64,000 nt of DNA from positions 14,608-78,607 of the forward strand of contig JBBRRY010000017.1 in assembly GCA_038245905.1 (NCBI GenBank), given 5' to 3'. The notes beneath the pieces were generated by a model. It worked only from the letters and a program-made list of their open reading frames with translations. It was not told the DNA's origin and ran no database searches. Below, piece after piece: positions 6,161-28,575 of the stretch (positions are counted from its first letter, which is position 1; each line of letters opens with the position of its first letter). A program made the position numbers and the translations under genes. Source of the DNA: Thermoanaerobaculia bacterium (GTDB lineage: Bacteria; Acidobacteriota; Thermoanaerobaculia; UBA5066).

Positions 6161-6186
6161 CCCCTCTTACCTTCTAAGAATTCTTC
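6161..6186 (+). repeat. copy of the dispersed ~26-bp motif (intergenic, rpsK-rpsD)
   Basis: CCCCTCTTACCTTCTAAGAATTCTTC. Confidence 0.75.
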
Positions 6187-6279
6187 GGAATTCTTCGTCC
6201 GTAAACCGAGCTCTCGATTCCGGGCCGGGAAGAAGGACGCAATGAAATGACGGAATCGGACGAGAGGTCGTGATTTCCC

Positions 6280-8587: not shown

Positions 8588-8621
8588 GTAGACAGGAAAG
8601 ATAGAGAAGAGACTCGGATAC

Positions 8622-8647
8622 GGATTTTCTTAAAAGGTTAAGAGGGG
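8622..8647 (-). repeat. copy of the dispersed motif (after rplQ, abutting the terminator)
   Basis: Reverse complement reads CCCCTCTTAACCTTTTAAGAAAATCC. Confidence 0.65.
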
Positions 8648-8671
8648 CCCCGGTTCGCCGGGGCCTTTTTT
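8646..8671 (+). terminator. Rho-independent terminator of the ribosomal protein operon
   Basis: Stem GGCCCCGG-TTCG-CCGGGGCC followed by TTTTTT. Confidence 0.9.
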
Positions 8672-8685
8672 CATGAGGGGGGCTT

Positions 8686-13386: not shown

Positions 13387-14868
13387 GTGACTCTTCGCCT
13401 TTACAACACCATGAGCCGCTCGCTCGAGGAGTTTCGTCCCGTCTACCCGGGAAAGATCGGCCTCTACACATGCGGACCCACCGTCTACAACCGGGTGCAC
13501 ATCGGAAACCTCAGGACATTCGTCTGGGAAGACGTGATGTGCCGCGTCTTTCGCGCCCTCGGCTACGAGACGACCCAGGTGATGAACCTCACGGACATCG
13601 ACGACAAGACGATCCGGGGCGCGTTGGCCGCCGGGCTGCCGCTGCGCGCGTTCACGGACCTTCACATCGCGACGTTCTTCGAGGACCTGAAGACGCTCGG
13701 CGTCGAGCCGGCGGCGCTCTATCCGCGCGCCACGGAGCACATCCCCGAGATGGTCACGATCGTCCAGAAGCTCGCCGCCCGTGGGCACACGTACGAGAGC
13801 GACGGATCGGTCTGGTTCCGGATCTCGACGTTCCCGGGCTACGGAAGTCTCTCTAAGATCGACCTCACGGCCGTGAAGCGCGGCGCGCGCGTGGCCGACG
13901 ACGAGTACGAGAAGGAAGATGTGCGCGACTTCGCGGTATGGAAGGGAGCGAAGGAGGGCGAGCCCGAGTCCGCGACGTGGGCCACGGCGCTTGGCCGCGG
14001 GCGGCCCGGCTGGCACCTCGAGTGCAGCGCCATGGCGATGAAGTACCTCGGCGAAACGCTCGACATCCACACGGGCGCCGTCGACAACATCTTCCCGCAT
14101 CACGAGAACGAGATCGCGCAGAGCGAAGGCGCGACCGGGAAACCGTTCGTCCATTACTGGCTCCACGCCGAGCACCTCCTCGTGGACGGCGAGAAGATGT
14201 CGAAGAGCAAGGGGAACTTCTACACGCTTCCCGACCTCCTCGAGAGGGGCTTCTCTCCGCGCGCGATCCGCTACCTCCTCATCTCGGTCCCGTATCGGAT
14301 GAAGCTCAACTTCACCTTCGACGGCCTGAAGGCCGCGACCTCCGCGGTCGAGCGGCTGGAGTCGCTCGACCTGCGGCTCAGGGAAAGAGAGAAAGAGAAG
14401 AACAGTTCTTTGAAAGGGGAAGAGGGGGGGAGAGAGGGATTCGAGGGGCGACTGGCGGAGGCGCGGCGTGCGGTCTTTGCCGCCCTCGAGGACGACCTCA
14501 ACACGGCCGGCGCTCTCGGGGCGCTGTTCTCGTTCGTCAAGGCGACCAACGTCGATCTCGAGGCGGGCCATCTGTCGGCCTCCGACGCAACCGCGGCGCG
14601 CGGTCTTCTCCATGAAGTCGCCGGGAACGTCTTCGGAGTCATTGAAAAGACCGCAGGCGACGATGCGCCCTCTTCACCTTCTCAGAAATCTTCATCCGAA
14701 TCCCCCGAATCCGATGATGCGTGGATCCTGGAGCGCATCGAGGCCCGAAAGGGGGCTAGAAAGGCCCGGGATTTCAAGGCCGCCGACGCGATCCGCGACG
14801 AGCTCCTGGGCAAGGGAGTCATCCTCGAAGACACGCCCCAGGGCGTTCGCTGGAAGAGGAAGCCTTGA
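13387..14868 (+). CDS. cysS: cysteine--tRNA ligase
   Basis: LYNT, YTCGPTVY, HIGN, GRPGWHLECSAM, FPHHENEIAQS and KMSKS motifs; GTG at 13387 chosen as start. Confidence 0.96.
   Translation: MTLRLYNTMSRSLEEFRPVYPGKIGLYTCGPTVYNRVHIGNLRTFVWEDVMCRVFRALGYETTQVMNLTDIDDKTIRGALAAGLPLRAFTDLHIATFFEDLKTLGVEPAALYPRATEHIPEMVTIVQKLAARGHTYESDGSVWFRISTFPGYGSLSKIDLTAVKRGARVADDEYEKEDVRDFAVWKGAKEGEPESATWATALGRGRPGWHLECSAMAMKYLGETLDIHTGAVDNIFPHHENEIAQSEGATGKPFVHYWLHAEHLLVDGEKMSKSKGNFYTLPDLLERGFSPRAIRYLLISVPYRMKLNFTFDGLKAATSAVERLESLDLRLREREKEKNSSLKGEEGGREGFEGRLAEARRAVFAALEDDLNTAGALGALFSFVKATNVDLEAGHLSASDATAARGLLHEVAGNVFGVIEKTAGDDAPSSPSQKSSSESPESDDAWILERIEARKGARKARDFKAADAIRDELLGKGVILEDTPQGVRWKRKP
14401..14693. repeat. 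inverted pair of the dispersed motif inside cysS
   Basis: Minus copy 14401-14427 (CCCCTCTTCCCCTTTCAAAGAACTGTT) and plus copy 14668-14693 (CCCTCTTCACCTTCTCAGAAATCTTC). Confidence 0.7.
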
Positions 14869-14894
14869 CAGTGGCGCGCCACTTCGGGTCTACT
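14865..14894 (+). promoter_or_regulatory. putative sigma70 promoter of the aro-his-trp leader
   Basis: Perfect TTGACA at 14865-14870; only a weak -10 (TCTACT) at 18 bp; spacer carries the palindrome AGTGGCGCGCCACT. Confidence 0.5.
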
Positions 14895-14903
14895 TCCGGA
14901 GTC

Positions 14904-14945
14904 ATGATCTTCGTCGCGCGCCACTGGCACGTTCATCACACCTGA
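14904..14945 (+). CDS. His/Trp-rich attenuator leader peptide MIFVARHWHVHHT
   Basis: ATG ATC TTC GTC GCG CGC CAC TGG CAC GTT CAT CAC ACC TGA: 4 His, 1 Trp and 1 Phe in 13 codons, upstream of the his and trp genes. Confidence 0.85.
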   Translation: MIFVARHWHVHHT

Positions 14946-15046
14946 GTCGGCTGCGCCTCGCGCCGCCGGCCCATAGAGGTTCGGAGGCACGCGGGTTTTC
15001 CAACAAGGTCACCCCAACCCCTCCGGATCGGAGGGGTTTTCGTTTT
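14946..15046 (+). promoter_or_regulatory. transcription attenuator (alternative hairpins plus terminator)
   Basis: Terminator AACCCCTCCG-GAT-CGGAGGGGTT-TTCGTTTT (15016-15046); antiterminator arms CGGAG (14982-14986) and GGGTT (14993-14997) are complementary to 15016-15025. Confidence 0.82.
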
Positions 15047-16607
15047 GGTCCTCACCGCGGAGAAAACACTTCTCGTCGCGTCCCTCGCACCGGCTTCTAA
15101 CGCCGAGGCTCTGGGGGGGCGCGCGGCTCTCGCCGACCTGCCTCCGTCGACGGCTGTCGAGCTGCGCCTGGATGCGATGACCGAGGCGCCTGCGTTCGGC
15201 GCGCTGCGCGCGTGCTTCGAAGGCAGAACGCTCATCGCAACCGTTCGATCCAAAGCCGAGGGCGGCGGGTTCCGGGGGAGCGAGGAGGAAGAGCGGGATT
15301 TCCTAGAAGGTGCCCTCTCTGCGGGCTTCGATCTCGCAGACGTTGAATTTCGCCGCGACCTTGGTACTCGCTTCGCCGGAATACCTCCTTCTAAGAAGAT
15401 TTCTTCTCTCCACGACCCCGAAGGGGTACCAGCCGACCTCGACAGCGTCGTCTCGAGGATGCTCGCTTCCCCCTCGCGCTTCGTGAAAGTCGCGGCGACG
15501 GCAAACGATTCCGGCGACGCCCGCCGCCTTCTCGAGCTTCAGGCCGCGAACCCAGGGGGGCGCCTCACCGTATTCGGCATGGGCGAGGCCGGGATCGCCA
15601 CGCGCGTCCTCTCGCCCTATCTCGGCGCGGCGCTCGCGTACGGGGCGCTCGTCCCCGGGCGCGCCACGGCACCCGGCCAGCTTCTTGCGCGCGACCTCAA
15701 CGAGATCTACGGCGTCGGCTGCGCGCGGAGCGTCTCGCGGCTCTTCGGGATCCTGGGCGGCGTCGTCTCGCACTCCCTCTCTCCCGCTCTCCACAACGCG
15801 AATTTCGAGGCTCTCGAAGAGGACGCGCTCTACGTCCCGTTTGCGATGCGGATGCTCGGGAGGGAGCTCGAGCCCCTCGTCGCCTCCCTCGACGCGCTCG
15901 GCCTTCCTCTCGGGGGCGTCTCGGTGACGATCCCGTTCAAGGAAGAGGCCGCGCTCCTTTCGGGCGCGGCCGAGGGCGGCGAGAGGGCGGTCAACACGCT
16001 CCTGAGGTCGAGCGCCCCGGGCCTGCCGCTCCAGTGGCGCGCGGAAAACACCGACCGTGCGGCATTCGAGGCCGTGATTGAAGATGCTTCCGAGAGAGGG
16101 AGAACCGAGACGAGCGCGAATGCGCGGGTGGCGATCGTCCTCGGGGCTGGTGGTACGGCACGGGTTGCCGTGGATGTTCTCCGAAAAAGGGGATTCGGAG
16201 TCTTTCTGGTGAACCGAGGCGAGGAGCGTGGCGAGGCGCTTGCGGCTGCCACGGGCGCCCATTACCTTTCTAATAAATCCTCGGCGCCGTGGCCCGAGGC
16301 TGGAGTCATCGTCAACGCGACGGCCCTCGGGCTTCTCCCGGGGGATCCTCTTCCCTGCGAGCAAAATATTCTCCGCCCCGGGATGCTCGTGATCGACGCG
16401 CCGTATCGCGCCGGCGGAACAGAGCTCGTCCGGGCGGCGCGCGCAGCGGGCGCGCGCGTCGTAGACGGCCAGACACTGCTCCTGCTTCAGGCCGCGGGCC
16501 AGGCAACGCTCTTCACCGGGCGGCAGACGAGCCCGCGGGATCTGCTCTCGCGTCTCGCGCCGCGCCTTCGCTCCCTGTTTTCGTCCTTCGAGGAGTTTTC
16601 TCCTTGA
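15045..16607 (+). CDS. bifunctional type I 3-dehydroquinate dehydratase / shikimate dehydrogenase (AroD-AroE fusion)
   Basis: N-half has VELRLD, ATVRSKAEGG, SLHD, MGEAG and APGQ; C-half has HSLSPALHN, SVTIPFK, AVNT, NTD, LGAGGTAR and VNAT; TTG start uncertain. Confidence 0.88.
   Translation: MVLTAEKTLLVASLAPASNAEALGGRAALADLPPSTAVELRLDAMTEAPAFGALRACFEGRTLIATVRSKAEGGGFRGSEEEERDFLEGALSAGFDLADVEFRRDLGTRFAGIPPSKKISSLHDPEGVPADLDSVVSRMLASPSRFVKVAATANDSGDARRLLELQAANPGGRLTVFGMGEAGIATRVLSPYLGAALAYGALVPGRATAPGQLLARDLNEIYGVGCARSVSRLFGILGGVVSHSLSPALHNANFEALEEDALYVPFAMRMLGRELEPLVASLDALGLPLGGVSVTIPFKEEAALLSGAAEGGERAVNTLLRSSAPGLPLQWRAENTDRAAFEAVIEDASERGRTETSANARVAIVLGAGGTARVAVDVLRKRGFGVFLVNRGEERGEALAAATGAHYLSNKSSAPWPEAGVIVNATALGLLPGDPLPCEQNILRPGMLVIDAPYRAGGTELVRAARAAGARVVDGQTLLLLQAAGQATLFTGRQTSPRDLLSRLAPRLRSLFSSFEEFSP
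15295..15406. repeat. inverted pair of the dispersed motif inside the aroD domain
   Basis: Minus CACCTTCTAGGAAATCCC (15295-15312); plus CCTCCTTCTAAGAAGATTTCTTC (15384-15406). Confidence 0.65.
16258..16282 (+). repeat. copy of the dispersed motif inside the aroE domain
   Basis: CCCATTACCTTTCTAATAAATCCTC. Confidence 0.6.
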
Positions 16608-18235
16608 AGATCGAGCGGCCCGACCCGAACCTGCCGCGAGGCGTGCAGGCATTTCTCTTCGACGCGGCCGAGCGCCGCCGGAAGGCGGAAGACTCGGTCG
16701 TGCGACGGCTTCAGGAGGCCGGTCTGCGTGAGGTGATTCTCCCCGTCCTGGATTTCGCGGCCCCCTATGCCGGCGTGACGGCCGAGGGAGACGATCGCCT
16801 TTATCGGTTCCTCGACCGGCAGGGGAATACTCTGGCGCTTCGGGCGGACTTCACGCCGATGGCGGCGCGCGTCGTGGCGCCACGGCTCAGCGCGCTCTCC
16901 GGAGCCGTCTCCCTCTTCTACCGCGGAGACGTCGTGCGCGACGAGGAGACTGGTGTCGGGCGCCGGCGCGAGTTCGCGCAGGTCGGCGCAGAGCGTTACG
17001 GCGATGGCCGCCCGGAGGCCGACGGCGAAATGCTCGCGCTGGCTCTCTCCTGCCTCGGAGATCTTCCGGCCGAGCGCCTCAGGCTCACCCTCGGCTGGTC
17101 GGGCCTCCTGGAACGCCTGCTCGCCATACTCGCCCCGGGACTCGAAGTGAACGGCGCGTCCGAACTCGCCGTTGCCTTGTCGGCCGCGCGCGCGCGGCAC
17201 ATCACGGAGCTGGAGACGCGGCTTTCGACCGCGGGCGCCGCGCCGGCCGTCGCTGCGGAAGCCGCCCGGGCCCTCCTCGTCGGCTTCGACCCCTCTTCCG
17301 ATCTCTTCCACTCGACTGCCCTTGCGGGCGCGGCCGCGGAGCTCGCGCGCGCGGTCGCAATTGCGAGGGCCGCCCGGCCCGGTCTCTCGGTCGTCGTCGA
17401 CCTTGCCGACACTCCCCAGGCCCCCTATTACACGGGGCTCACGTTCAGCGTGGACGCCGCGAGCGGGGGCGGCACGATTGCCGGAGGCGGACGGTACGAC
17501 GGCCTCCTCGGGCGTTTCGGCACGGCGGCGCCCGCGCTCGGCTTCTGTATCGGCCTCGAGGCTCTCGGTGCTGCCGCCGATGTAACCGAGAGAGACGCGC
17601 GCCCTCTCCGAATCGCGGTCGGGAAGGGCCGGCTCCTGCCGCAGGCGCTCGAGGCGCTCGACGCCGGAGGCGCCTCGTTCGGCGAGCCGGACGGCCGGCG
17701 CCTTCTCGTGCTTTCCTCGGACGGCGCGTTCGAGCTGCTTCTCCTCAAGGACGACGACGTCCCGACCTACGTGGCTCACGGTGGCGCCGACCTCGGGATC
17801 GTGGGGAGCGACCGCGTCCTCGAGAGCGGCGAGGACGTGACCTCCCCCGTGGAGCTTCCGTTCGGCGCCTGCCGCCTCTCCCTCATCGGGCGGGCGGGGG
17901 AGCCGTTCCGCCCGAACGGCGCGCCCGTTCGCGTGGGAACGAAGTACCGCCGCCTCGCGGCCCGCTATTTCGATGAGCGGAAGATCGCCCATGAGATCGT
18001 CCCGCTCGCGGGTTCGGTCGAGCTCGCTGCCGCGCTCGGGCTCACGGACGTCGTCGTGGACCTCATCGAATCTGGCTCCACGATGGCCGCGAACGGTCTC
18101 GCCGAGATCGAGACCATCCTCACGAGCCGCGCGACCCTCGTCCTCGGGCGTTCCGCGCTCATCGCCCGCCGGGCCGAGATCGCGGAGTTCGTCCAGCGCC
18201 TCAGGGCTCATGCGGGCAAGGCGCTGACTTCATGA
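16604..18235 (+). CDS. hisZ-hisG: HisZ-HisG(short) fusion: ATP phosphoribosyltransferase regulatory plus catalytic subunit
   Basis: HisZ motifs LALRADFT, REFAQVGAE, YYTGLTF and GGGRYDGLLGRFG are in frame with HisG motifs RIAVGKGRL, DVPTYVAHGGADLGIVG, TKY, GSVELA and DLIESGST; TTG overlaps the aroE stop. Confidence 0.9.
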   Translation: MKIERPDPNLPRGVQAFLFDAAERRRKAEDSVVRRLQEAGLREVILPVLDFAAPYAGVTAEGDDRLYRFLDRQGNTLALRADFTPMAARVVAPRLSALSGAVSLFYRGDVVRDEETGVGRRREFAQVGAERYGDGRPEADGEMLALALSCLGDLPAERLRLTLGWSGLLERLLAILAPGLEVNGASELAVALSAARARHITELETRLSTAGAAPAVAAEAARALLVGFDPSSDLFHSTALAGAAAELARAVAIARAARPGLSVVVDLADTPQAPYYTGLTFSVDAASGGGTIAGGGRYDGLLGRFGTAAPALGFCIGLEALGAAADVTERDARPLRIAVGKGRLLPQALEALDAGGASFGEPDGRRLLVLSSDGAFELLLLKDDDVPTYVAHGGADLGIVGSDRVLESGEDVTSPVELPFGACRLSLIGRAGEPFRPNGAPVRVGTKYRRLAARYFDERKIAHEIVPLAGSVELAAALGLTDVVVDLIESGSTMAANGLAEIETILTSRATLVLGRSALIARRAEIAEFVQRLRAHAGKALTS

Positions 18236-19542
18236 TGAAGATCGTCGACGCGGATACGCTTGCGGGCAAGAAGGAGCTGGAGCGGTTGCTAAAGAGCCGC
18301 CGGGGAGCCGCTCCTGACTTCGCGACGCTGAAGCAGGTCCTGCCGATCGTGGAGGATGTTCTGCGAAGAGGGGAGCCTGCGCTCCGGAAATACGTGAAGT
18401 GCTTCGACCCGTTGCGCGGCGCCCCTTCTTACCCTTCTAAGAAGCTCTTGATCACTCCCCGACGTGAGGAGTCTTCTCGGGTGGATCCGGCGTTTCAGGC
18501 GGCGTTTGTCTTCGCCCGCAAGCGCATCGAGGCTTATCACCGCAAGCAGCTCTCGTCCGTCTCGCCGGGTTTCTCCTTCAAGGACTCTCTCGGCGTCTCC
18601 TTCGTGGAGAGGCCCACGCCGTTCGATTCGGTGGGCGTCTATGTGCCCGGGGGCCGCGCCTTCTATCCGTCCTCGCTTCTCATGGGGGTCGTGCCCGCGC
18701 GCGTCGCGGGCGTCAGGCGAGTCGTCGTCGCGACGCCGCGCGGGGCGTGGGCGTCGAGCCCCGAGCTCCGGTGGGCGGCGGCCGAGCTGGGAGTCGACGA
18801 GGTGCTCCTCGCGGGAGGGGCCCACGGTATCGCCGGCCTCGTGTCCGTCGCGGGCGTCGCGAAGATCGTCGGCCCCGGGAACCGGTTCGTCGCGGCGGCG
18901 AAGCACCTCGTCTCGGGCCTCGTGGCGGTGGACATGCCGGCAGGGCCTTCGGAAGTCGCAATCCTCGCGTCGGCCGATGCGGACCCGGCGCTCGTGGCGG
19001 CGGATCTTCTCGCGCAAGCGGAGCACGATCCCGACGCAAAGTGCTTGCTGTTTACGAGCTCGAGAAGGCTGGCGGACGCCGTTCGATGCGCGGCGCTCTC
19101 GCAGATGGATGCCTTCGAAGAGGATTCTTCTTTGATGGTGATGAGAGCGGCCTTGCGCCGCGGTGGGCGGATCTTTCTATTCAAAGAAATCTCCCGCGCC
19201 GCGTCGGCCTGCGCTGCCGTGTTCGCGGAGCACGTTCAGGTCATGGGCCGGTCTGTCGAGCGCTCGGCGGGTTCTCTCTTTCCCGCTGCCGGAACCTTGT
19301 TCATTGGCCCGTCGACGCCGACCGCGCTCGGGGACTACGTCCTCGGCCCGAATCACGTACTGCCCACAGGCGGTGCCGCGCGCAGCTTCTCGGGTCTCTC
19401 GGTGCGCGACTTCCTGCGCTGGGGGCGATCGGTCTCGGCCCCCGTGAAGGCGGCCCGCCGCCTCGCGCCCGCGGCAGCGGTCCTGGCGCGATTCGAAGGT
19501 CTCGTCGCCCACGCGAGCGCGCTCGACCGGAGAGTCCGGTGA
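18232..19542 (+). CDS. hisD: histidinol dehydrogenase
   Basis: VGVYVPGG, KIVGPGN, DMPAGPSE, DLLAQAEHD and GDYVLGPNHVLPT motifs. Confidence 0.95.
   Translation: MMKIVDADTLAGKKELERLLKSRRGAAPDFATLKQVLPIVEDVLRRGEPALRKYVKCFDPLRGAPSYPSKKLLITPRREESSRVDPAFQAAFVFARKRIEAYHRKQLSSVSPGFSFKDSLGVSFVERPTPFDSVGVYVPGGRAFYPSSLLMGVVPARVAGVRRVVVATPRGAWASSPELRWAAAELGVDEVLLAGGAHGIAGLVSVAGVAKIVGPGNRFVAAAKHLVSGLVAVDMPAGPSEVAILASADADPALVAADLLAQAEHDPDAKCLLFTSSRRLADAVRCAALSQMDAFEEDSSLMVMRAALRRGGRIFLFKEISRAASACAAVFAEHVQVMGRSVERSAGSLFPAAGTLFIGPSTPTALGDYVLGPNHVLPTGGAARSFSGLSVRDFLRWGRSVSAPVKAARRLAPAAAVLARFEGLVAHASALDRRVR
18422..18449 (+). repeat. copy of the dispersed motif inside hisD
   Basis: CCCCTTCTTACCCTTCTAAGAAGCTCTT. 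Confidence 0.7.
19120..19195. repeat. degenerate inverted pair of the dispersed motif inside hisD
   Basis: Minus CTCTCATCACCATCAAAGAAGAATCCTC (19120-19147); plus TCTTTCTATTCAAAGAAATCTCCC (19172-19195). Confidence 0.55.
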
Positions 19543-20606
19543 CCGGCCGGCCCATCCCGGTCCGCGAGGAGATCCGGTCGCTCAGGGCCTATCGCCTCGA
19601 GTCCGAGGACGCCCCCCCTCTCCGAGCGAAGCTGGACTTCAACGAGTCGCCGTTCGACGTGCCCGAGGAAATCCGCGCGGAGGTCCTCGCGCGCCTCGCG
19701 GCGAAGAGATGGGGCCGCTACCCCGAGTTCGGCGCGCCGCGTCTGAAGAGGGCGGTCGCCGAGGCGATTGGCCGGCGGCCCGAAGAGATCGTGGTCGGCA
19801 ACGGGTCTGGTGAGGTCCTTCTCGCGGCGGTCTCCGTCTTCGCGGGGGGCGGCTCTCTCGTCCTTCCGACGCCCACGTTCTCGCTCTACGGACAGATCGC
19901 GGCGATCGCGGCGGCCCGCGTCGTGGACGTGCCGCGCACGGGGCCGGATTTCGAGCTCGTCGAGGACGCATTTCTCGCCGCGGTGTCCCGGCCGCACGCC
20001 GTTCCTCTCGTCTGCTCGCCGAACAACCCGACGGGCGGCGTCGTACGGCGGGAATTCCTGGAGAGGCTGCTCACGGCCGCGCCCGTCGTGCTCCTCGATC
20101 AGGCCTACGTGGATTTCGCGGGGCCCGGCGACGACGGCCTCTCGCTCCTCGATGCCTATCCGAACCTCGTCGTCTTCCGGACGCTCTCGAAGGCGTACGC
20201 GGCCGCGGGCTTCCGGATCGGGTACGCAGTCGCGCCGCCGGAGCTCGCGCGGGAGATCGAGAAGGCCGTCCTGCCGTTCAGCGTCGACCTCGCGGCCGAG
20301 GAGTTGGCGGTCGCCGTCCTCGGGCGTCCAGAGGTTGCGCGGGCCCACCTGGGCAAGATCGTGGCCGAGAGGTTGCGCGTGGCCGCGGCGCTCACGGCGG
20401 CCGGCTGCCTCGTGGCTTCGTCGTCCGCAAATTTTCTCTTCGTGCGTCCGCCGGGCGGCCAGGCGGAGCCGGTCCGCCGGGCGCTTCTCGACAGGGGAAT
20501 CCTCGTGCGCGAAATGACCGCGGCGGCGCCCGGGCGCCTCCGTGTTTCGATCGGATCCCGTGAGGAGAACGATCTTTTCCTCGAAGCGCTTCGGGAGGTG
20601 TTATGA
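19539..20606 (+). CDS. hisC: histidinol-phosphate aminotransferase
   Basis: KLDFNESP, GNGSGE, CSPNNPTG, DQAY and RTLSKAYAAAGFRIGY motifs; GTG overlaps the hisD stop. Confidence 0.93.
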   Translation: MTGRPIPVREEIRSLRAYRLESEDAPPLRAKLDFNESPFDVPEEIRAEVLARLAAKRWGRYPEFGAPRLKRAVAEAIGRRPEEIVVGNGSGEVLLAAVSVFAGGGSLVLPTPTFSLYGQIAAIAAARVVDVPRTGPDFELVEDAFLAAVSRPHAVPLVCSPNNPTGGVVRREFLERLLTAAPVVLLDQAYVDFAGPGDDGLSLLDAYPNLVVFRTLSKAYAAAGFRIGYAVAPPELAREIEKAVLPFSVDLAAEELAVAVLGRPEVARAHLGKIVAERLRVAAALTAAGCLVASSSANFLFVRPPGGQAEPVRRALLDRGILVREMTAAAPGRLRVSIGSREENDLFLEALREVL

Positions 20607-21199
20607 GCAGGGTCGGAACAGTCGAGCGGAAGACGAAGGAGACGGACGTGTCCCTGTCGCTGACGCTCGACGGAGCGGGGCGAACGGACGTGACTACGCC
20701 CGTCGGGTTTCTCTCCCACATGCTCGAGACGATCGCGAAGCACGCGCGCGTCGATCTCACGGTCCGGGCGTCGGGCGACGTGCACATCGACGCCCACCAC
20801 ACGGTCGAGGACGTCGGCCTCGCCTTCGGCGAGGCGCTGGCTCAGGCCCTCGGGTCGCGCGCGGGAATCGAGCGCTTCGGCGAGAGCCTCGTGCCGCTCG
20901 ACGAGGCTCTCGCGCGTTCGGTCGTCGACCTCTCTGGCCGGCCGTACATCGTGTTCGAGTCTCCCATCGACAAAGAGCTCCTCCTTGTCACGAACGACTT
21001 CCCGTTCGCGCTCGTCGAAGAGTTCTGGAAGTCCGCGGCGTTTCGCGGCAAGTTCAACCTCCATGTGGACGTGATCCGCGCCCGGAACGGCCATCACGCG
21101 GCCGAGGCTGTCTTCAAGTCGGCCGCGCGCGCGCTGCGCCAGGCCATGACGATCACGGGCTCAGAGGTTCTCTCGACGAAAGGGACGCTGACGGCATGA
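20603..21199 (+). CDS. hisB: imidazoleglycerol-phosphate dehydratase (monofunctional)
   Basis: RKTKETD, HIDAHHTVEDVG, PLDEAL, NGHHAAEAVFK and STKG motifs. Confidence 0.96.
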   Translation: MSRVGTVERKTKETDVSLSLTLDGAGRTDVTTPVGFLSHMLETIAKHARVDLTVRASGDVHIDAHHTVEDVGLAFGEALAQALGSRAGIERFGESLVPLDEALARSVVDLSGRPYIVFESPIDKELLLVTNDFPFALVEEFWKSAAFRGKFNLHVDVIRARNGHHAAEAVFKSAARALRQAMTITGSEVLSTKGTLTA

Positions 21200-21825
21200 G
21201 CGAAGCCCCCGCGCCGGTGGTCACGCTCGTGGACTACGGGGTCGGTAACACGGCTTCCGTCATCCGCGCCTTCCGCCGGCTCGGCGCCGAGGTGGACTTC
21301 ACGGCCGATCTCGACCGGGTCGCGGCCGCCCGCCGCCTCGTGCTGCCCGGCGTCGCCGCGTTCGCCCCGGCGATGAACCGGCTGCTCGAGACCGGCCTCG
21401 AATCGGCCGTGCGGGCAGCCGTGAAGCGGGGAGGGCGTCTGCTCGGGCTCTGCCTGGGTTTTCAGCTTCTCTTCGAAGAAAGCGAGGAGCACGGCGTTCA
21501 CCGGGGGCTCGGCCTCGTGTCCGGCCGTATCCGGCCCTTCCCGGGCAGCGTGCGGTCGCCTCACGTGGGCTGGAACCGGCTCCTCACTCGCCGGCCGGAC
21601 GGTTTCGTCGCGGGGCTTCAGGACCGGAGCTTCGTCTACTTCGTCCATTCCTTCAGACCCGAGGGCGCCGAAGCCGCGGACGTCGCGGCGGCCTGCGACC
21701 ACGGCGGAGAGTTCCCGGCGATCGTGCAGCGCGGGAACGTCTGGGGTTGTCAGTTCCACCCGGAAAAGTCGTCGGAGAACGGCCGGCTCCTGCTCTCGAA
21801 TTTTCTCGAGGGGGATCCGGCGTGA
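21196..21825 (+). CDS. hisH: imidazole glycerol phosphate synthase, glutaminase subunit
   Basis: DYGVGN, LPGV, GLCLGFQLL, PHVGWN, YFVHS and QFHPEKS motifs. Confidence 0.95.
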   Translation: MSEAPAPVVTLVDYGVGNTASVIRAFRRLGAEVDFTADLDRVAAARRLVLPGVAAFAPAMNRLLETGLESAVRAAVKRGGRLLGLCLGFQLLFEESEEHGVHRGLGLVSGRIRPFPGSVRSPHVGWNRLLTRRPDGFVAGLQDRSFVYFVHSFRPEGAEAADVAAACDHGGEFPAIVQRGNVWGCQFHPEKSSENGRLLLSNFLEGDPA

Positions 21826-22607
21826 ACGGCGGCCGGCTTGCGCTGTGGCCCGCGATCGACCTCATGGGCGGCCGCGTGGTCCGGCTGCTCAGGGGCAAGC
21901 GCGAGGCCGTGACGTTCTACGACGAGCAGCCTTCCGAGGCCGCGAGGCGATTTGCGGCGGAAGGCGCCGACGGCATCCACGTGGTGGATCTCGATGCGGC
22001 ATTCGGAACGGGGGACAACGAAAGCAATCGGAAAGAGATTGAAGAAATACTTTCTGTTTCGGAGGCTTCCGGGGTGGCAGTGCAAGTCGGGGGAGGGCTG
22101 CGCGCCACCGCGGCCGTCGAAGATTTCTTAGAAGGGGTGAGTACCGCTAGGGCAGTTGTCGGCAGCCTGCCGTTCCTCGACCGCCCCGCGTTCACACACC
22201 TTCTAAGAAAATCTTCCTCTTCCGTCTCGGCCCGCATCGTGGTGGCCCTCGATTGCAAGGATGGCCGTCCGACCGTCCGCGGCTGGACCGAGGACGCGGG
22301 AGCGGGTGACGCCGTGTCCGTGGCACGCGAGATGTGGGGCCTCGGCGTCCGGGCGCTCCTCGTCACGGACGTCGCGTGCGACGGGGCCATGACGGGCCCG
22401 AATCTCGAACTCCTCGCCGGAGTGCGCGCCGTCTTTCCGGGCGAGATCCTGGCGTCCGGCGGCATGCGAGGAGAACGGGATCTCGATCCGGTCGACCGCA
22501 CGCTCGCGGGTGGGCCCCGCGGCGCCATCTTCGGCCGCGCATTGCACGGCGGAGTCACCACCATGGCGAAGCTCAAGGCGGCGCGCGACCTCGGGAGGCC
22601 TTCATGA
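21822..22607 (+). CDS. hisA: ProFAR isomerase
   Basis: [35 protein letters not shown] and ASGG motifs. Confidence 0.93.
22119..22217. repeat. near-perfect inverted pair of the dispersed motif inside hisA
   Basis: GAAGATTTCTTAGAAGG (22119-22135) and CCTTCTAAGAAAATCTTC (22199-22216). Confidence 0.8.
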
Positions 22608-24037
22608 CCCTCGCCGTCCGCGTCATCCCGTGTCTGGACGTCTCGGAAGGCCGCGTCGTAAAGGGCGTCTCGTTCGAAAATCTCCGCGACGCGGGAGATC
22701 CGGTCGAAGCGGCCACGCGCTACGAGGCCGAGGGGGCCGACGAGGTGGCTTTCCTCGACATCGCGGCCGCGCACGAGAAGCGAGGGACGTTCGTGGGGCT
22801 CGTGGGGCGCGTGGCCGAGGCGCTGTCTATTCCCTTCACCGTCGGCGGCGGCGTGCGTTCCGTGGAGGACGCGGACGCGCTCCTCAAGGCCGGGGCCGAC
22901 CGGGTCACGGTGAACACAGCCGCGGTCGAGGACCCTTCCCTCATCACGCGCCTCTCCGAGCGGTTCGGAGCGCAGTGCGTCGTCGTCGCAATCGACGGAA
23001 AGAGGCTGCGCGATCCGAACGGCCTCGCGGTGATGCGCGTGACGACTCACGGGGGGAGGCGGCCCGTAGACCGCACGGTCACATCCTGGGCGGCCGCGGC
23101 GGCGGCAGCAGGAGCCGGCGAGATTCTGCTCACGTCCGTCGACGCGGACGGCACCCAGGCGGGGTTCGATCTCGAAATGCTCCGCGCCGTTCGCTCCGTC
23201 GTGGATGTGCCGGTCGTGGCCTCGGGAGGCGCGGGCCGGCTCGAAGACTTCGCGAAGGCGGTTCTCATCGGGGGCGCCGACGCCGTGCTCGCGGCGTCCG
23301 TCTTCCACGACCGCGTCTTCACGATTGGCGCGGTCAAGGAGGCGATGCGGCGTGCCGGCCTCGTCGTGCGCCCCGCTCCGGCCCGCGCACGTACGCTGCT
23401 TCCCCGCTACGACGAGAACGGGCTCGTGCCCGTGATCATGCGGGACGTCGCGACCGGCAGGGTCCTCACGCTCGCGTGGGCGAACGCGGACGCGATCGCA
23501 AAGACCCGCGAGACCGGCCTCGCGCACTTCTACAGCCGGTCCCGGAAGTCCCTGTGGCGGAAGGGGGAGACGTCGGGGAACATCCAGCACGTCGCGGGAA
23601 TTTCCCTCGACTGCGACGACGATGCCGTGCTGTACGACGTGCGCCCGTCGGGTCCCGCCTGCCACACGGGAGCGGAATCGTGCTTCACGCGCGTGGAGAG
23701 CTTCGACTCCTTCGACGTCCATGGCGCAGTCGCCGACGGGCTCGACCTCACCGAACTGTTCGCCGTCGTGAGGAGCCGGAAGGAATCGCCGGTCGCCGGC
23801 TCGTATACGAGCAAGCTCTTTGACGACGGAATAGCGCGCATCGCACAGAAAGTGGGGGAGGAAGCCGTCGAGACGGCGCTCGCCTCGGTGACAGGCGACG
23901 GCAATGCGCTCGCGGGAGAGGCGGCCGATCTTCTTTATCACCTCGCGGTCCTGCTCACGGCGCGCGGCGTCGCACCGGGCGACGTCGCCGCGAAACTCGC
24001 TGAGCGCCGAGGCGCCGCGAGGCGCGAGAAGCCGTGA
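22604..24037 (+). CDS. hisF-hisIE: HisF-HisI-HisE triple fusion (IGP synthase cyclase, PR-AMP cyclohydrolase, PR-ATP pyrophosphatase)
   Basis: [15 protein letters not shown] (HisF); [22 protein letters not shown] and ACHTG (HisI); GSYT and [16 protein letters not shown] (HisE), all in one frame. Confidence 0.92.
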
Positions 24038-25410
24038 GGAATCTCCACCGCCTCGTCGTGGTCGAGAGGCCGGCGGACCTTACGACGCCCGTTGCGCTCA
24101 TGAAGGGCCTTCTTGCCGGCGAGGGGCCGTGCTTCCTTCTCGAATCGGTCGAGGGGGGCGACCGCGTGGCGCGGTGGTCCTTCCTCGGGGCGTCGCCCTC
24201 GGGAGAGATCTCCGGCCAGGATACGGATCCGTTCGCCGCCCTCCGCGCGCTGCCTCGCGGCGAAATGGCGGCAGGCGGGGACGACCTCCCTCCCTTCACG
24301 GGCGGAGCCGTCGGTTACGCGGGCTACGACGCCGTGAGGCGCCTCGAACGCCTCCCCGAAACGAACCCGGACCCGATCGGGCTGCCGGACGCGTGGTTCG
24401 GGATCTTCGACGCGGTCATCGCGTTCGACCATGTGCGGCACCGCCTTCTCTTCGTGACGCATGCCGAAGAGGGCCGGGAGGAAGAGGCGCGCGCTCGTCT
24501 GCACGCGCTCGAGGCGCGCACCCTCACCCGAGGTGGTGAAACGCGCACAGAGACTCTCTCTTCTCTTACCTTCAAAGAATCTTCTCCTCGTTCCTCCTAC
24601 ATCGCGGCGGTCGAGCGCGCGAAGGAGCACATTCGGGCGGGCGACGTGTTTCAGGTCGTCCTCTCGCGCCGCTGGTCCGCACCCTTCGACGGCGACGCCT
24701 TCGCTGTCTACCGCGCGCTCCGGTCCATCAGCCCGTCGCCGTACCAGTACTTCCTGAGGACGCCGCACGGCGCGATCTTCGGAGCCTCGCCCGAGCGACT
24801 CGTGCGCGTCGCGGCGGCCCTCGGCGGCGCGGCCGTGGAGACGATTCCTCTCGCCGGCACCCGCGCGCGCGGCGCGACGCGCGAAGAGGACCTCGCCCTC
24901 GAGAAGGAGCTCCTCGCGGACCCGAAGGAGCGCGCGGAGCACGTGATGCTCGTGGATCTCGGGAGAAACGACCTCGGCCGAGTCGCGAAGGCCGGGAGCG
25001 TGCGCGTGGAAGATTTTTTCCGCGTCGAGCGCTATTCCCACGTGATGCACATCGCCTCGCGCGTGACCGGCGTTCTCGCCGAGGGGAAGGACGCCGTCGA
25101 CGCTCTCGTGGCGACGTTTCCGGCCGGGACGCTTACGGGAGCGCCGAAAATACGCGCGATGGAGATCATCGAGGACCTCGAGCCGGTGCGGCGCGGCGCC
25201 TACGGCGGCACCGTGGGCTACCTCGACTTCGCCGGAAACCTCGACGTGGCTATCGCGATCCGCACGGCGGTCGTCGCGAACGGCATTCTCCACGTGCAGG
25301 CCGGCGCCGGCATCGTCGCCGACTCCGACCCCGAGGCCGAAGCGACCGAGTGCGAGAACAAGGCCCGTGCTCTCATGGGCGCCGTTGCGAAGGCGGGGAC
25401 GTACCGATGA
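24034..25410 (+). CDS. trpE: anthranilate synthase component I
   Basis: [45 protein letters not shown] and [10 protein letters not shown] motifs. Confidence 0.95.
24561..24586 (+). repeat. copy of the dispersed motif inside trpE
   Basis: TTCTCTTACCTTCAAAGAATCTTCTC. Confidence 0.7.
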
Positions 25411-25976
25411 TCCTCGTCGTCGACAACTACGACTCCTTCACGTACAACCTCGTCCAGATCCTCTCCATGTTCGACGGCGACGTACGCGTCGTGCGAAACG
25501 ACGCGCTCAGCGTGGACGCGATCCTCGCTGCGAAGCCGGACCGGCTCGTCGTGTCTCCGGGGCCGGGCCGGCCGGAAGACGCGGGAGTCTCGTGCGAGCT
25601 GATCCGCCGGAACGAGCGGATCCCTCTCTTAGGAGTCTGCCTCGGGCATCAGGCCCTCGGGGCCGTCTTCGGCGGAACGGTCTCCCGCGCGCCGGTCCTC
25701 ATGCACGGCAAGACTTCGGAAATCTCGCACGAGGGAGCGGGCCTTTTCGCGGGGCTCCCGAGCCCGTTCACGGCCACGCGGTACCACTCCCTCGTCGTGG
25801 AGCGGGACTCGGTTCCCGCGGCGCTCCGGATCACCGCCACGACCGATGACGGGCTCGTGATGGGCCTCGCCCATCGGACCCGCCCTCTCGTCGGCGTGCA
25901 GTTCCATCCCGAGTCGATCCTGACGAAAGAGGGGGAGCGGCTCCTGAAGAACTTCGTGGACGGGCGGCTCGCGTGA
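25407..25976 (+). CDS. trpG: anthranilate synthase component II (glutamine amidotransferase)
   Basis: DNYDSFTYNL, SPGPG, GVCLGHQ, RYHSL and GVQFHPES motifs. Confidence 0.95.
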   Translation: MILVVDNYDSFTYNLVQILSMFDGDVRVVRNDALSVDAILAAKPDRLVVSPGPGRPEDAGVSCELIRRNERIPLLGVCLGHQALGAVFGGTVSRAPVLMHGKTSEISHEGAGLFAGLPSPFTATRYHSLVVERDSVPAALRITATTDDGLVMGLAHRTRPLVGVQFHPESILTKEGERLLKNFVDGRLA

Positions 25977-27013
25977 CGACGGCCGCCCATCGCGCGCTCT
26001 GGACGGTGGCGCGTGGCGCGCATCTGACCCGCGCGGAAGCGCGGGCAGCCGTGACGGCGCTTCTCGACGAGGACATCCCCGGGACGATCGTGGCCGGCCT
26101 CCTCGCGGCGCTGGCGGCCCGGGGCGAGACGATCGAGGTCGTGGCGGGCGCCGTGGATGTCCTCCGGGCGCGGGCGGCGCGGCCTCCCGTGGACGCGGCA
26201 CTGGCCGCCCGCTCCATCGACGTCTGCGGAACCGGGGGCGACGGGTTCGGCACCTTCAATGTCTCGACGGCCGCCGCGTTCGTGGTCGCGGGCGCAGGGA
26301 CGCCCGTCGCCAAACACGGGAACCGTGCCGTCTCCTCGGCATGCGGCTCGGCCGACGTCCTCGCAGCGCTTGGTGTCGAAATCGAGATGTCTCCCGTCCG
26401 GGCCGCCGAGGCGCTCGCGCGCGCGAACGTCACTTTCTTCTTCGCGCCGCTCTATCACCCCTCGATGAAGAAGGTAGGCCCGATCCGGCGCGAGCTGGGA
26501 GTCCGCACGGTATTCAACCTCGCCGGACCCCTTTCGAATCCGCTCGGCGTGACGCGGCAGATCGTGGGGGTGGATCATCCCGAGCGGGTGCCCGTGATCG
26601 CGGGAGCCCTCGCGGAGCTCAACACCGAGCGCGCGCTGGTGTTCTCGCACGAGACCGGCGGCGACGAGCTGCTGCCCTTCGGGCGCACGTTCGCGGCAGA
26701 CGTGCGCGGGACCCATGTCGAGCTTCTCGAGCTCTCTGCCCCGGATTTCGGCCTCGAGGAGGGCGAGGGGGCCGATCCCTTGAAGGGCGGGGACGCCCAC
26801 ACGAACGCGGAGATCCTGCGCGCGATCCTGGGAGGCTTCCGGCGCGACGCGCGGGACGTCGTCCTGATGAACGCTGCAGCTGCGCTCGTCGTCTCGGGAC
26901 TGGCCGCTGATTACCGGGAAGGCGTCACGCGGGCGGAACACGCCATCGACGAGGGGAGTGCCCGGGAGGCGCTCGATGCGCTCGTGAGAATCTCGAACGG
27001 GGTCCCGTCCTAA
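25973..27013 (+). CDS. trpD: anthranilate phosphoribosyltransferase
   Basis: DVCGTGGDG..TFNVST, KHGNRAVSS.CGSADVL and RTVFNLAGPL motifs. Confidence 0.95.
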   Translation: MTTAAHRALWTVARGAHLTRAEARAAVTALLDEDIPGTIVAGLLAALAARGETIEVVAGAVDVLRARAARPPVDAALAARSIDVCGTGGDGFGTFNVSTAAAFVVAGAGTPVAKHGNRAVSSACGSADVLAALGVEIEMSPVRAAEALARANVTFFFAPLYHPSMKKVGPIRRELGVRTVFNLAGPLSNPLGVTRQIVGVDHPERVPVIAGALAELNTERALVFSHETGGDELLPFGRTFAADVRGTHVELLELSAPDFGLEEGEGADPLKGGDAHTNAEILRAILGGFRRDARDVVLMNAAAALVVSGLAADYREGVTRAEHAIDEGSAREALDALVRISNGVPS

Positions 27014-27028
27014 GAGGAGTAAGAGGGA

Positions 27029-27271
27029 GAGAAATTTCTTAGAAAGGGTAAGAGGAAGAGGGGATGGGCGGATCGATTCTTGGGGAGATTCTCGCCGCCA
27101 AGCGGCGCCGGATCGCCCGTGGGGAGTTCACGGCCGAGACGGGCGCGCGCGCACGCACCAGCGGGGGTAGGGGCGCGCAGCCCGCGGCGCGGCCCGACGG
27201 CGCGCGCTTCGCCGCGGCCCTTAGGTCTCACCCTTCTCTTTCTTCCTCCTCCATTTCTAAGCAAGTCTTTC
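27029..27271. repeat. inverted pair of the dispersed motif: trpD-trpC intergenic plus trpC 5' region
   Basis: Minus CCTCTTACCCTTTCTAAGAAATTTCTC (27029-27055); plus CCTCCTCCATTTCTAAGCAAGTCTTTC (27245-27271). Confidence 0.7.
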
Positions 27272-28575
27272 CTCTTCCTCTCCTTCTTTCCGAGATCAAG
27301 CACCGCTCCCCGAGCGCGGGCCTGATTCTTCCCGACGCGTCCTCGCGAATCGAGTCCCTCGCGCGCGCCTATCGGCGCGGCGGGGCGTCGGTCCTCTCCG
27401 TCGTCGTCGAGCAGGACTTCTTCGGCGGCGATCCGTCATGGCTGCCCCGCGCGAAGGCTGCGTCCGGGCTGCCCGTCCTGATGAAGGACTTCATCGTGGA
27501 CGAGGCACAGCTGGACTTCGCCGCGGCCCTCGGCGCCGACGCGGTGCTCCTCCTCGTGTCTGCCCTCGAGGACGAGGGGCTTTCGCGCCTCCATGCGGCC
27601 GCGCGCTCCCGCGGTCTCGCGGTCCTCGTGGAGGCGCACGACGAGGCCGAGACCCGGCGGGCGCTGGATGTGGGCGCGGAGGTTGTCGGCGTGAACGCGC
27701 GGGATCTCGAGACGTTCGCCGTCGACCTGCCTGGAATGGCCCGCCTCGGTTCGCTCCTGCCGACGTCAGTCGTCCGCGTGGCCGAGAGCGGCATCAGGAC
27801 CCGAGCGGACATCGAGGCTCTCTCCATGGCGGGCTATGGGGCTTTTCTCGTCGGTGAGACGCTCCTCCGCGCGTCCGACCCGGCGCGCGCCCTGCGCGAG
27901 CTCAAGGGCGAGAACGCGACCGAGATCAAGATCTGCGGCGTCACCCGGGAAGAAGACGTCGACGCGTGCCTGGAGTTCGGCGTGGACTGGATCGGGCTCA
28001 TCTTCGCGGAGCGCTCGCCGCGGAAATTGACGCCAGAGAGAGGAAGAATTCTTCGAATGAGGGCAATGGGGGAGCGCGGTGCGCGACGAGAGGAAGGCGG
28101 GGCTGCGGGCGCCGTCAAGGGTGTGGTGGTTGTCTTCGACGGGGGCGACGAGGAAGAGATTCTTCGAGTCATTGAACTCGTTCGTCCGGACGTCGTTCAA
28201 ATGCCAGATCCCCCTCTTACCCTTCAAAAGAAATTCTCTTCTTTCTCTTTTCTTTCGCTGTGGAACACCCTTCGTGTCGGGAGAGATGACTTGTCGAGTG
28301 CGAATGAGCGGCGCGGCGCCGCTCTCCACTTCGATACGTCGGTGGCCGGGGCGAGCGGTGGCACCGGCAAGACATTCGACTGGACTCTTCTGGACGCCGT
28401 CGATCGATCGCGCCCGCTGATTCTCGCGGGCGGCCTGAATCCCGGAAACGTGGCGGACGCCGTCAGAAGAGTGAAGCCGGACGTCGTGGACGTGGCGTCG
28501 GGAGTGGAGTCCGCGCCCGGAATCAAGGATCGGGCGAAAATCGCCGCATTCGTGAGGGAGGTCCGTGGTGCCTGA
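27064..28575 (+). CDS. trpCF: TrpC-TrpF fusion (indole-3-glycerol phosphate synthase / PRA isomerase)
   Basis: [22 protein letters not shown] and AESGI (TrpC); [25 protein letters not shown] and DVASGVE (TrpF). Confidence 0.93.
28043..28238. repeat. inverted copies of the dispersed motif inside the trpF domain
   Basis: Minus CCCATTGCCCTCATTCGAAGAATTCTTC (28043-28070); weak minus copy near 28153-28175; plus CCCCCTCTTACCCTTCAAAAGAAATTCTC (28210-28238). Confidence 0.68.

Follow-up and report, generated by a model that had tools for sequence, protein, structure and literature searches.

We analysed a 64-kb window (64,000 nt, the whole stretch of DNA studied here; 67.8% GC) on contig JBBRRY010000017.1 of a Thermoanaerobaculia bacterium, in which a short DNA motif recurs as inverted pairs inside amino-acid biosynthesis genes. 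By Pfam matches, the window opens with the end of the ribosomal spc/alpha operons (1–8.6 kb), followed by two response regulators, a FecR/DUF6600 protein and def (8.7–13.3 kb). Within 13.3–30.6 kb, on the plus strand, lie cysS, fused aroD-aroE, fused hisZ-hisG, hisD, hisC, hisB, hisH, hisA, fused hisF-hisIE, trpE, trpG, trpD, fused trpC-trpF, trpB and trpA; mixed genes occupy 31–64 kb. The motif is concentrated on this cysS-aroDE-his-trp cluster, where a purine-rich copy on the left and a pyrimidine-rich copy on the right, here called the left and right arms, bracket stretches of host gene. Because many related soil bacteria hold motif pairs at the same positions, the arms are very probably a real, selected signal and constitute a lineage-specific cis-element family in Thermoanaerobaculia.

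In its pyrimidine-rich orientation the motif reads approximately CCCCTCTTACCCTTCTAAGAAATCTTC and spans about 25–30 bp. Its AT-rich core, TTCTAAGAA (also written CYTTCNAAGAAATC), is almost palindromic and carries purine- or pyrimidine-rich flanks; because the flanks are pyrimidine-rich on one strand, the motif as a whole is asymmetric. The 17-mer CCTTCTAAGAAATCTTC has seven matches in the window with up to three mismatches, against 0.05 expected, and none of 100 shuffles reached seven. The core with up to one mismatch gives 26 matches against 2.35 expected, a count likewise reached by 0 of 100 shuffles, with some matches scored on both strands owing to the near-palindromy. Searching with an nhmmer profile made from 17 seed copies finds 20 copies, 17 of them in coding sequence. 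Fifteen of the 20 fall inside 14.4–28.3 kb, a stretch making up 21.7% of the window (binomial p = 5.6e-7), bearing out the clustering proposed in a preliminary description of this DNA, which had placed about 15 of 20 copies there. Nearly all low-GC 60-nt bins in 13–31 kb coincide with a motif copy. A generic inverted-repeat search was swamped by GC-rich chance repeats.

The preliminary description had listed 14 copies as seven close pairs, each with a minus-strand copy to the left of a plus-strand copy and starts about 50–270 bp apart. Direct reading of the sequence found the motif at all 14 positions in the orientation given. The seven pairs all run minus-then-plus (chance under random orientation, 6e-5), with start spacings of 52–267 bp.

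The arrangement extends to relatives. The closest HisA relatives are annotated as Thermoanaerobaculia or Acidobacteriota proteins from metagenome-assembled genomes (MAGs), and a HisA search of genome contigs yielded 40 loci: 30 from Acidobacteriota/Thermoanaerobaculia MAGs, with HisA identities of 58–86%, and 10 unrelated high-GC outgroups. The arm profile matches 28 of the 30 related loci, with 1–16 matches of at least 6 bits per locus, and none of the 10 outgroup loci; the two most remote of the 30, L027 (Holophagales) and L030, lack any match. The matches map to nine pair positions; counted by site and locus, both arms were detected 134 times, a left arm by itself 20 times and a right arm by itself 45 times. 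Neighbouring matches no more than 400 bp apart comprise 92 minus-plus, 6 minus-minus, 1 plus-plus and 0 plus-minus arrangements, 99 non-independent neighbour pairs that represent the nine sites plus rimO. Tandem left arms upstream of trpC account for most of the six minus-minus cases: seven loci (L004, L005, L006, L007, L011, L024 and L029) carry them as a direct repeat, 35–45 nt apart, in the trpD-trpC spacer. From purine copy to pyrimidine copy, the spacing is 20–344 bp and depends on the site.

In a concatenated-protein tree, L027 and L030 fall outside; a basal clade (L025, L020 and L021) has few, imperfect arms, chiefly in hisA; and the crown clade comprises two subclades in which almost all nine pairs are present. 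Because nearly the full set occurs in both crown subclades, it is best placed in their common ancestor, with single arms apparently lost later. The preliminary description had also suggested that the cluster might be an acquired block. This idea fails on two counts: the motif-less L027 and L030 share the def, response regulator, cysS, aro, his and trp order, and the arms accumulate stepwise along the tree. Gene order from def to beyond trpA is in fact identical across the 30 relatives, as far as each contig extends.

The nine positions, P1–P9, are given here on window protein coordinates (left arm/right arm) together with the arms of the window itself. P1 lies in cysS (384/472–488); its left arm (14396–14425, minus; 22 loci including the window) covers codons ~380–389, between the catalytic and DALR domains, and its right arm (14673–14699, plus; 19 loci including the window) lies past the DALR domain. 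P2 (aroDE 88/112–120) has a left arm in aroD at 15289–15312 (minus), encoding ERDFLEG, and a right arm at 15382–15410 (plus), encoding PPSKKISS. The window's three single plus copies, starting at 16258, 18427 and 24565, are right arms whose left partners are found in relatives. The first belongs to P3 (aroDE 352–384/408; 16258–16288, plus, in aroE), whose left arm is undetected in the window and present in 18 related loci. The second belongs to P4 (hisD 48–64/64–80; 18427–18454, plus), with a left arm undetected in the window and present in 19 related loci. P5, also in hisD (296–304/320), has arms at 19118–19145 (minus) and 19177–19200 (plus). P6, in hisA (128/152), holds the most widely conserved arm of all, a left arm at 22114–22141 (minus; 28 loci including the window) that encodes VEDFLEG; the right arm at 22197–22221 (plus) encodes THLLRKSS and is followed by a polypyrimidine tract coding for poly-Ser, the length of which varies by species. 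The third single copy is the right arm of P7 in trpE (152–160/176–184; 24565–24581, plus), where the left arm is missing from the window's subclade and present in 7 related loci. P8 spans the trpD-trpC junction and trpC 56–64. Its left arm (27025–27054, minus) sits in a clade-specific trpD-trpC spacer, and the inner AAGAGGGG, just upstream of the trpC start, looks like the trpC ribosome-binding site; its right arm (27247–27271, plus) covers trpC codons 62–69. P9 (trpCF 328–344/384–400) has both arms in trpF, at 28035–28063 (minus) and 28213–28244 (plus). The P2 and P9 arms and the right arms of P5 and P8 rest on the profile and on relatives. By their own scores, the arms at 19118–19145 (3.4 bits) and 27247–27271 (5.9 bits) are weak; both are backed by orthologous arms in relatives.

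Outside the cluster, nhmmer finds a lone pyrimidine-type copy in the rpsK-rpsD intergenic spacer (6165–6187, plus; flanking genes by Pfam) and a lone purine-type copy in the rplQ 3′ untranslated region (UTR; 8614–8645, minus), followed by an intrinsic-terminator hairpin with a T-run at 8636–8669 seen by folding. The profile also places a lone left arm encoding EEKVSLKVN in a methylpurine-DNA glycosylase gene (42455–42477, minus), and a pair in a rimO/miaB-family gene of the window. The left arm of that pair (52609–52637, minus; a weak 3.9–6.3 bits) encodes EEKDFIEVEE with GAT, ATA and GAA codons, and the right arm lies at 52722–52749 (plus).

The arms are conserved as DNA. Among codons of 14 genes that have an A or T third base in the window, the A/T third base is retained in 72% of species at 63 arm codons, against 31% at 785 others (p = 7e-19), and the A/T content of third positions (AT3) is 55% within arms versus 13% elsewhere. 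Over 25 sequences the hisA arms hardly change as DNA, whereas synonymous sites in the 57-nt interior do vary; in L027 and L030 the hisA arm positions are filled by ordinary GC-rich codons. Among 20 HisA homologues the peptides VEDFLE(G/R) and LLRKSS show little or no variation, and the outgroup residues differ. The motif is evidently held against the genome's bias toward G and C at third positions (GC3), and the HisA protein has evidently been altered to fit it. As for the drop in GC3 over 100–300 bp reported around the pairs, it is real at the arms and their purine/pyrimidine flanks, over ~30–120 bp, but does not cover the whole 100–300 bp between arms.

Each intragenic copy is translated in frame with its host gene, and all three reading frames are used among the copies. 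Depending on frame, left arms yield EDFLEG, NSSLKG, EDSSLM, RILRMR or ISLKVN, and right arms PSKKIS, LLRKSS, FKEIS or LQKKFS. The frame that would read TAG or TAA is occupied only with an altered centre base, as in TTCTTTGAA, TTCGAA and TTCAAAGAA.

Further upstream in hisA, ~75 nt before the P6 left arm, lies an AT-rich patch, AAAGAGATTGAAGAAATACTTTCTGTTTCGG (22032–22060). Its middle is a compact near-palindrome, GAAGAAAT.CTTTCT, that resembles a right-arm half fused to a left-arm half with no spacer. The patch is conserved as DNA in 12 of 12 mappable loci of the window's subclade, the window included, and encodes a nearly invariant 10-residue peptide.

How the arms arose differs between sites. 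Regions with and without arms are equally long at hisA (132 nt), aroD (144 nt) and trpE (159–165 nt), and the interiors are native: the His_biosynth domain spans the hisA pair and ARAVVGSL aligns with homologues, in keeping with the recognisable enzyme core first noted between the arms. At these three sites the arms therefore arose in place rather than by insertion of a unit, remodelling the encoded protein, and the early judgement that the operon pairs are not simple insertions of miniature transposable elements with inverted repeats (MITEs) holds. The aroE left arm is carried on a 33–42 nt insert, and the clade-specific trpD-trpC spacer holds one left arm or two in tandem. Homologues of the methylpurine-DNA glycosylase (42137–42733) often have an in-frame insert between two conserved blocks, consisting of EEKISLKVN (a left arm in the cysS frame), 20–60 non-conserved residues and PSSLSKK (a right arm); some homologues are without this arm-loop-arm insert, and the window retains the left arm alone. 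Given the in-place operon arms and the glycosylase insert, both substitution and insertion have produced arms.

The purine tracts that lie 5′ of left arms and the pyrimidine tracts 3′ of right arms lengthen and shorten without breaking the frame. Past the hisA right arm, TCTTCC-like hexamer and triplet repeats (22210–22240; L001–L028) range from none to more than 80 nt and give HisA poly-Ser/Leu tails of varying length. In 5 of 20 HisA homologues (P0020, P0029, P0079, P0081 and P0087; locus L015, 10268–10492), ~40 extra residues form a degenerate tandem duplicate of left arm, beta-strand segment and right arm; the TIM-barrel HisA that bears it is presumably still functional.

We compared the arms as RNA stems and as DNA sites. 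The preliminary description had raised both long RNA stems and DNA looping. Stems are energetically possible: arms are ~75–80% complementary, cognate arm duplexes average −35.9 kcal/mol (range −33 to −42), and folding gives −53 kcal/mol for the hisA pair (z = −5.3 against shuffles) and z = −2.2 for the rimO pair. However, the RNA proposal found no backing in covariation or in an excess of G.U over A.C. RNAalifold on 25 hisA pairs returned 16 mostly invariant base pairs with a covariation term of −0.48, and isolated arm-to-arm mismatches comprise 121 G.U versus 107 A.C (p = 0.39) and 311 transversions; the covariation and G.U tolerance expected of a structured cis-regulatory RNA are thus absent from these alignments. 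For aroD, the fold of the pair is no more stable than those of shuffles (z = +0.4); the hisD arms fold apart from each other. Arms pair about as well with those of other species (−35.1 kcal/mol) or other sites (−33.1) as with their own partners. Duplexes of the sense strand have a small stability advantage over antisense ones (−35.9 versus −34.4 kcal/mol, p = 0.02). The centre base is unlike between partners in 69 of 131 pairs, tracking stop-codon avoidance in each arm's frame; it is the same in 62, versus 44 expected by shuffling, an excess confounded by site.

Rfam gives no match at gathering score in the window, none in 15360–15430, and one chance-level match (E = 0.41) in 13–31 kb. A search of 13–31 kb for sigma-70-type promoters at the arms gave 0. 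Terminator-like sites there number 11, versus 10.3 from shuffles, and none is formed by a left/right-arm pair, although one candidate terminator stem adjoins the cysS right arm. The operon pairs are not MITE insertions, an acquired block or a known RNA family.

Lone arms of both types fit the motif just as closely as paired ones do (7.2 versus 7.7 bits and 9.6 versus 9.3 bits) and retain AT3 at 0.56, tests that are biased in that only profile-detectable arms are scored. The reverse-complemented left-arm logo equals the right-arm logo across the core, and the motif is kept in both orientations independently of its partner, as is the case for sequence-specific DNA-binding sites. By our own arithmetic on the frequency profile, the information in the core far exceeds what an ordinary operator needs. 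The purine-first order is identical on both strands and is therefore uninformative on the direction of transcription. Because covariation and a G.U bias are missing, lone arms are intact and the two arm logos are identical, we prefer a duplex-DNA site over a stem; RNA pairing is apparently not the property selected in the arms.

Our leading explanation, offered tentatively, is that each arm is a duplex-DNA recognition site for a putative factor and is used in convergent pairs. One trans-acting factor, a protein or an RNA-guided complex, would read each arm as sequence on duplex DNA. Two convergent sites would enclose a short piece of gene and act together, through bridging or looping or as a two-sided block, and ~18 such sites over 15 kb would place the aromatic/histidine/tryptophan operon and cysS under factor-dependent control. 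Arm-to-arm base pairing would be a by-product of having one site in both orientations. The looping suggested in the preliminary description fits the tests better, as DNA-level recognition by a putative factor, than RNA stems do.

Several observations weigh against this explanation. By Pfam, the window has no gene for a DNA-binding regulator, recombinase or transposase near the cluster. The strict polarity of the pairs and the undiminished lone arms are awkward for simple pairwise bridging, and the lone-arm comparison itself carries the detection bias mentioned above. Pair spacing shows no helical phasing: the check for a ~10.5-bp period gave Rayleigh p values of 0.02–0.08 on 43 non-independent distances, which is not convincing. 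The outward purine and pyrimidine tracts, with their slippage, have no obvious protein-binding role and would lengthen an RNA stem; the stable hisA fold and the small sense-strand advantage also favour RNA, and the P8 left arm also serves as the trpC ribosome-binding region, an RNA-level property. Among established signals, we know of no fit in spacing or half-site order with CodY boxes, ParB/Noc sites, the archaeal Lrp-family (FL11) palindrome or IHF sites.

A bolder reading, which we put forward as a doubtful proposition, is a new type of regulon, in which one trans-acting reader uses ~25-nt operators placed in amino-acid biosynthesis coding sequence as convergent pairs. The reader might be a protein, an RNA-guided complex or a small RNA from the rplQ 3′ UTR (the copy at 8614–8645). 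Such a system would tie aromatic, histidine and tryptophan synthesis and cysS to ribosome production or amino-acid status, and evolution would have remodelled the host proteins to bear the signal. In the rplQ 3′ UTR (8588–8678), the purine-type copy stands directly ahead of a 14-bp terminator stem, and the arm's inner AAGAGGGG is part of that stem. Against right arms, this copy pairs at or near the first percentile of the background in 5 of 11 cases (−26.2 to −28.6 kcal/mol; percentile −26.7 kcal/mol). It could yield a small RNA that pairs with right arms.

RNA may nevertheless be the level at which the arms act. We think it somewhat improbable, yet worth serious attention, that they form a masking hairpin, in which the left arm, transcribed first, sequesters a right arm that functions single-stranded in the mRNA, for example as a Rho loading site, an RNase E entry site or the target of a trans-acting small RNA. 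The right arm would be sequestered unless ribosomes or other factors intervene, which would couple translation status to operon expression. This would explain the purine-first polarity, with the mask made before the site, and it suits the greater number of lone right than of lone left arms (45 versus 20), the location of every pair within a single transcript and the strong duplexes (−33 to −42 kcal/mol; low z-scores at hisA and rimO). Purine and pyrimidine flanks that can pair in many registers, the overlap of the P8 left arm with the trpC ribosome-binding region, an rplQ 3′ UTR copy placed before its terminator like a 3′UTR-derived small RNA and the slight sense-strand advantage all agree with it as well. 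A masking stem should however be maintained as a stem, and the hisA alignment has no covariation, G.U is not preferred over A.C, centres are mismatched in 69 of 131 pairs, and cognate pairing is no better than cross-species pairing. Lone left arms, moreover, stay intact, the aroD and hisD pairs do not fold as expected, Rfam is silent, and an arrangement that looks alike on either strand has no tie to the sense transcript.

A further lead, suggested by the likeness of the pyrimidine arm to the anti-Shine-Dalgarno sequence plus the start of the spacer, was mimicry of the 16S rRNA 3′ end. It was not supported in a comparison with E. coli rrsH: the arm profiles do not match the rrsH end, and 15 + 17 weak matches fall elsewhere in the 47-kb locus. 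The consensus aligns locally to the rrsH end with a score of 18, tied at about rank 39 of 11,742 windows, and the best score elsewhere is 22.

We consider it unlikely that the motif is spread by a biased process, as a selfish or neutral drive, whether an uptake-like signal or a small in-frame palindromic mobile element. Evolution in place in several frames, with remodelling of the protein, is known behaviour of uptake sequences, and here arms evolved in place in three frames, with stop-avoiding variants and remodelled variable protein segments; every copy is maintained by itself, with symmetry between the two strands. Also in favour are the glycosylase arm-loop-arm unit, an in-frame insertion missing from some homologues and resembling the Rickettsia palindromic elements (RPEs) described in PMC10969869, the 5 of 20 homologues in which the whole hisA unit is duplicated in tandem, and the tandem left arms of the trpD-trpC spacer. 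Against drive stands the ~ten-fold concentration on one cluster within the window (22% of its length holds 15 of the 20 copies), and strict pair polarity is unexpected of uptake signals. The hisA, aroD and trpE loops are native coding sequence with no unit inserted, sharp element ends and target-site duplications are lacking, and positions have been fixed since the crown-clade ancestor, with no recent movement seen.

It is decidedly improbable that the pairs are intragenic invertons, with a site-specific recombinase flipping the segment between the arms and so reversibly turning biosynthetic genes off. Intragenic inverted-repeat pairs are on record, including one that turns thiC off through a premature stop (PMC10028968). 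A common repeat consensus would suit one master invertase, and inversion in silico gives stops at P1 (15 of 18), P4 (14 of 18) and P6 (21 of 25). Yet all 134 pair instances (the window plus 26 related loci) are in native orientation, in assemblies that show the majority state only, and the window has no recombinase gene. Unlike site centres should hinder strand exchange by a recombinase, and the centre differs between partners in 69 of 131 pairs. Arms are non-palindromic beyond 9 bp, unlike typical recombinase core sites; lone arms persist; and a set of nine switches within a single pathway cluster, with one in cysS, would be superfluous or damaging. Recoding by inversion was also considered and rejected: the inverted reading is open mostly at P2 (6 of 7) and P5 (14 of 15) and not elsewhere, so there is no consistent pattern.

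That the copies are no nucleic-acid element at all, but a recurrent peptide motif, low-complexity linkers or compositional chance, is hardly credible: left arms do often encode an acidic helix end (EDFLEG-like) common in alpha/beta enzymes, but a shared peptide is ruled out because one DNA motif is read in three frames to give unrelated peptides (EDFLEG, ISLKVN and RILRMR; PSKKIS, LLRKSS and FKE), and the motif also occurs in intergenic DNA, synonymous sites are conserved, shuffles never match the observed counts and outgroup orthologues have ordinary GC-rich codons at the arm positions. Whatever probability these readings leave over belongs to ideas not yet conceived.

The surroundings of the pairs are compact. 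Starts and stops overlap nearly throughout the operon, and intergenic space is minimal except for the arm-bearing, clade-specific trpD-trpC spacer. Four fusions lie in the cluster: aroD-aroE (15045–16604), hisZ-hisG (16289–18232), hisF-hisI-hisE (22334–24034) and trpC-trpF (27064–28572). Between the cysS stop and aroDE, a strong intrinsic-terminator-like hairpin (15016–15048) has 10 pairs, seven of them G-C, followed by a T-rich tail. Because this hairpin with its T-run separates the two, cysS is probably transcribed apart from aro-his-trp, though the motif is present in both. Divergent from cysS, a response regulator gene (12360–13259, minus) encodes a receiver domain and a weak GAF match, with no recognisable output or DNA-binding domain; its position is kept in all relatives, motif-less ones included. 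A replication origin, terminus or domain border was also set aside, as was the chromosomal domain that the clustering had been thought to mark: cumulative GC skew rises monotonically over the window, with no change marking a border.

Regulatory and structural DNA or RNA signals in bacteria are usually sought between genes. Here, a high-information signal is imposed on the reading frames of essential enzymes, alters their amino-acid sequence and has stayed at fixed codons throughout a whole clade of uncultured Acidobacteriota. Should a factor read the arms, this would be operon control without a described counterpart and a clean natural case of nucleotide-level selection overriding codon bias and protein sequence. 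If the motif is instead a drive element, it would show selfish motifs colonising and then persisting within genes of core metabolism. Under either reading, the motif is a ready diagnostic marker for the lineage.

A literature search on the motif core, on Thermoanaerobaculia repeats and on inverted repeats in Acidobacteria coding regions found no description of the element, and it departs in at least one defining feature from each of RPE-type elements, uptake sequences, REPINs and intragenic invertons. The uptake signal sequences (USS) of Pasteurellaceae and DNA uptake sequences (DUS) of Neisseriaceae are high-information motifs of 10–30 bp that accumulate in coding regions by substitution; they occupy several frames, affect the encoded peptides, and are lineage-specific and strand-symmetric. 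The motif described here likewise accumulates in coding DNA by substitution and in several frames. In contrast to USS and DUS, it forms obligatorily polar inverted pairs inside genes, and its density within the window is far from even, with a roughly ten-fold concentration on one cluster.

RPEs are short palindromic repeats within protein genes that are translated in frame and tolerated in surface segments (PMC10969869), and the glycosylase arm-loop-arm unit shares with them its character as an in-frame insertion. However, whole-element insertion is found only at the glycosylase gene; at hisA, aroD and trpE, regions with arms are as long as in the arm-less L027 and L030, and the operon arms flank native, conserved coding sequence and arose without change in length. 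Unlike in RPEs, the arms alone (~25–30 bp) are conserved around interiors that are unrelated gene segments of 20–344 bp, positions are fixed and constraint is at the nucleotide level clade-wide.

REPINs, inverted REP doublets that RAYT transposases mobilise, combine two short conserved repeats in a fixed inverted arrangement that allows a long hairpin, and are vertically inherited and persist in their lineage (PMC3116915, PMC3337134); the present pairs share these properties. REPINs are extragenic and have a short, element-specific spacer, whereas here 17 of 20 copies are coding and the spacer is 20–344 bp of host gene. The motif core is AT-rich, not a GC-rich hairpin, and no RAYT transposase gene lies in the 64-kb window.

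Intragenic invertons also place an inverted-repeat pair wholly inside a gene, biosynthetic genes included (PMC10028968). Here, none of 134 pairs is inverted, partner centres often differ, one 25-bp consensus serves many genes, and positions are deeply conserved. Finally, the coding palindromes of nematomorph mitochondria are inverted repeats in functional genes with both arms coding (PMC6649704), and are long, perfect and gene-specific in these animal genomes. The Thermoanaerobaculia element, by contrast, is one short motif repeated across many bacterial genes around unrelated interiors.

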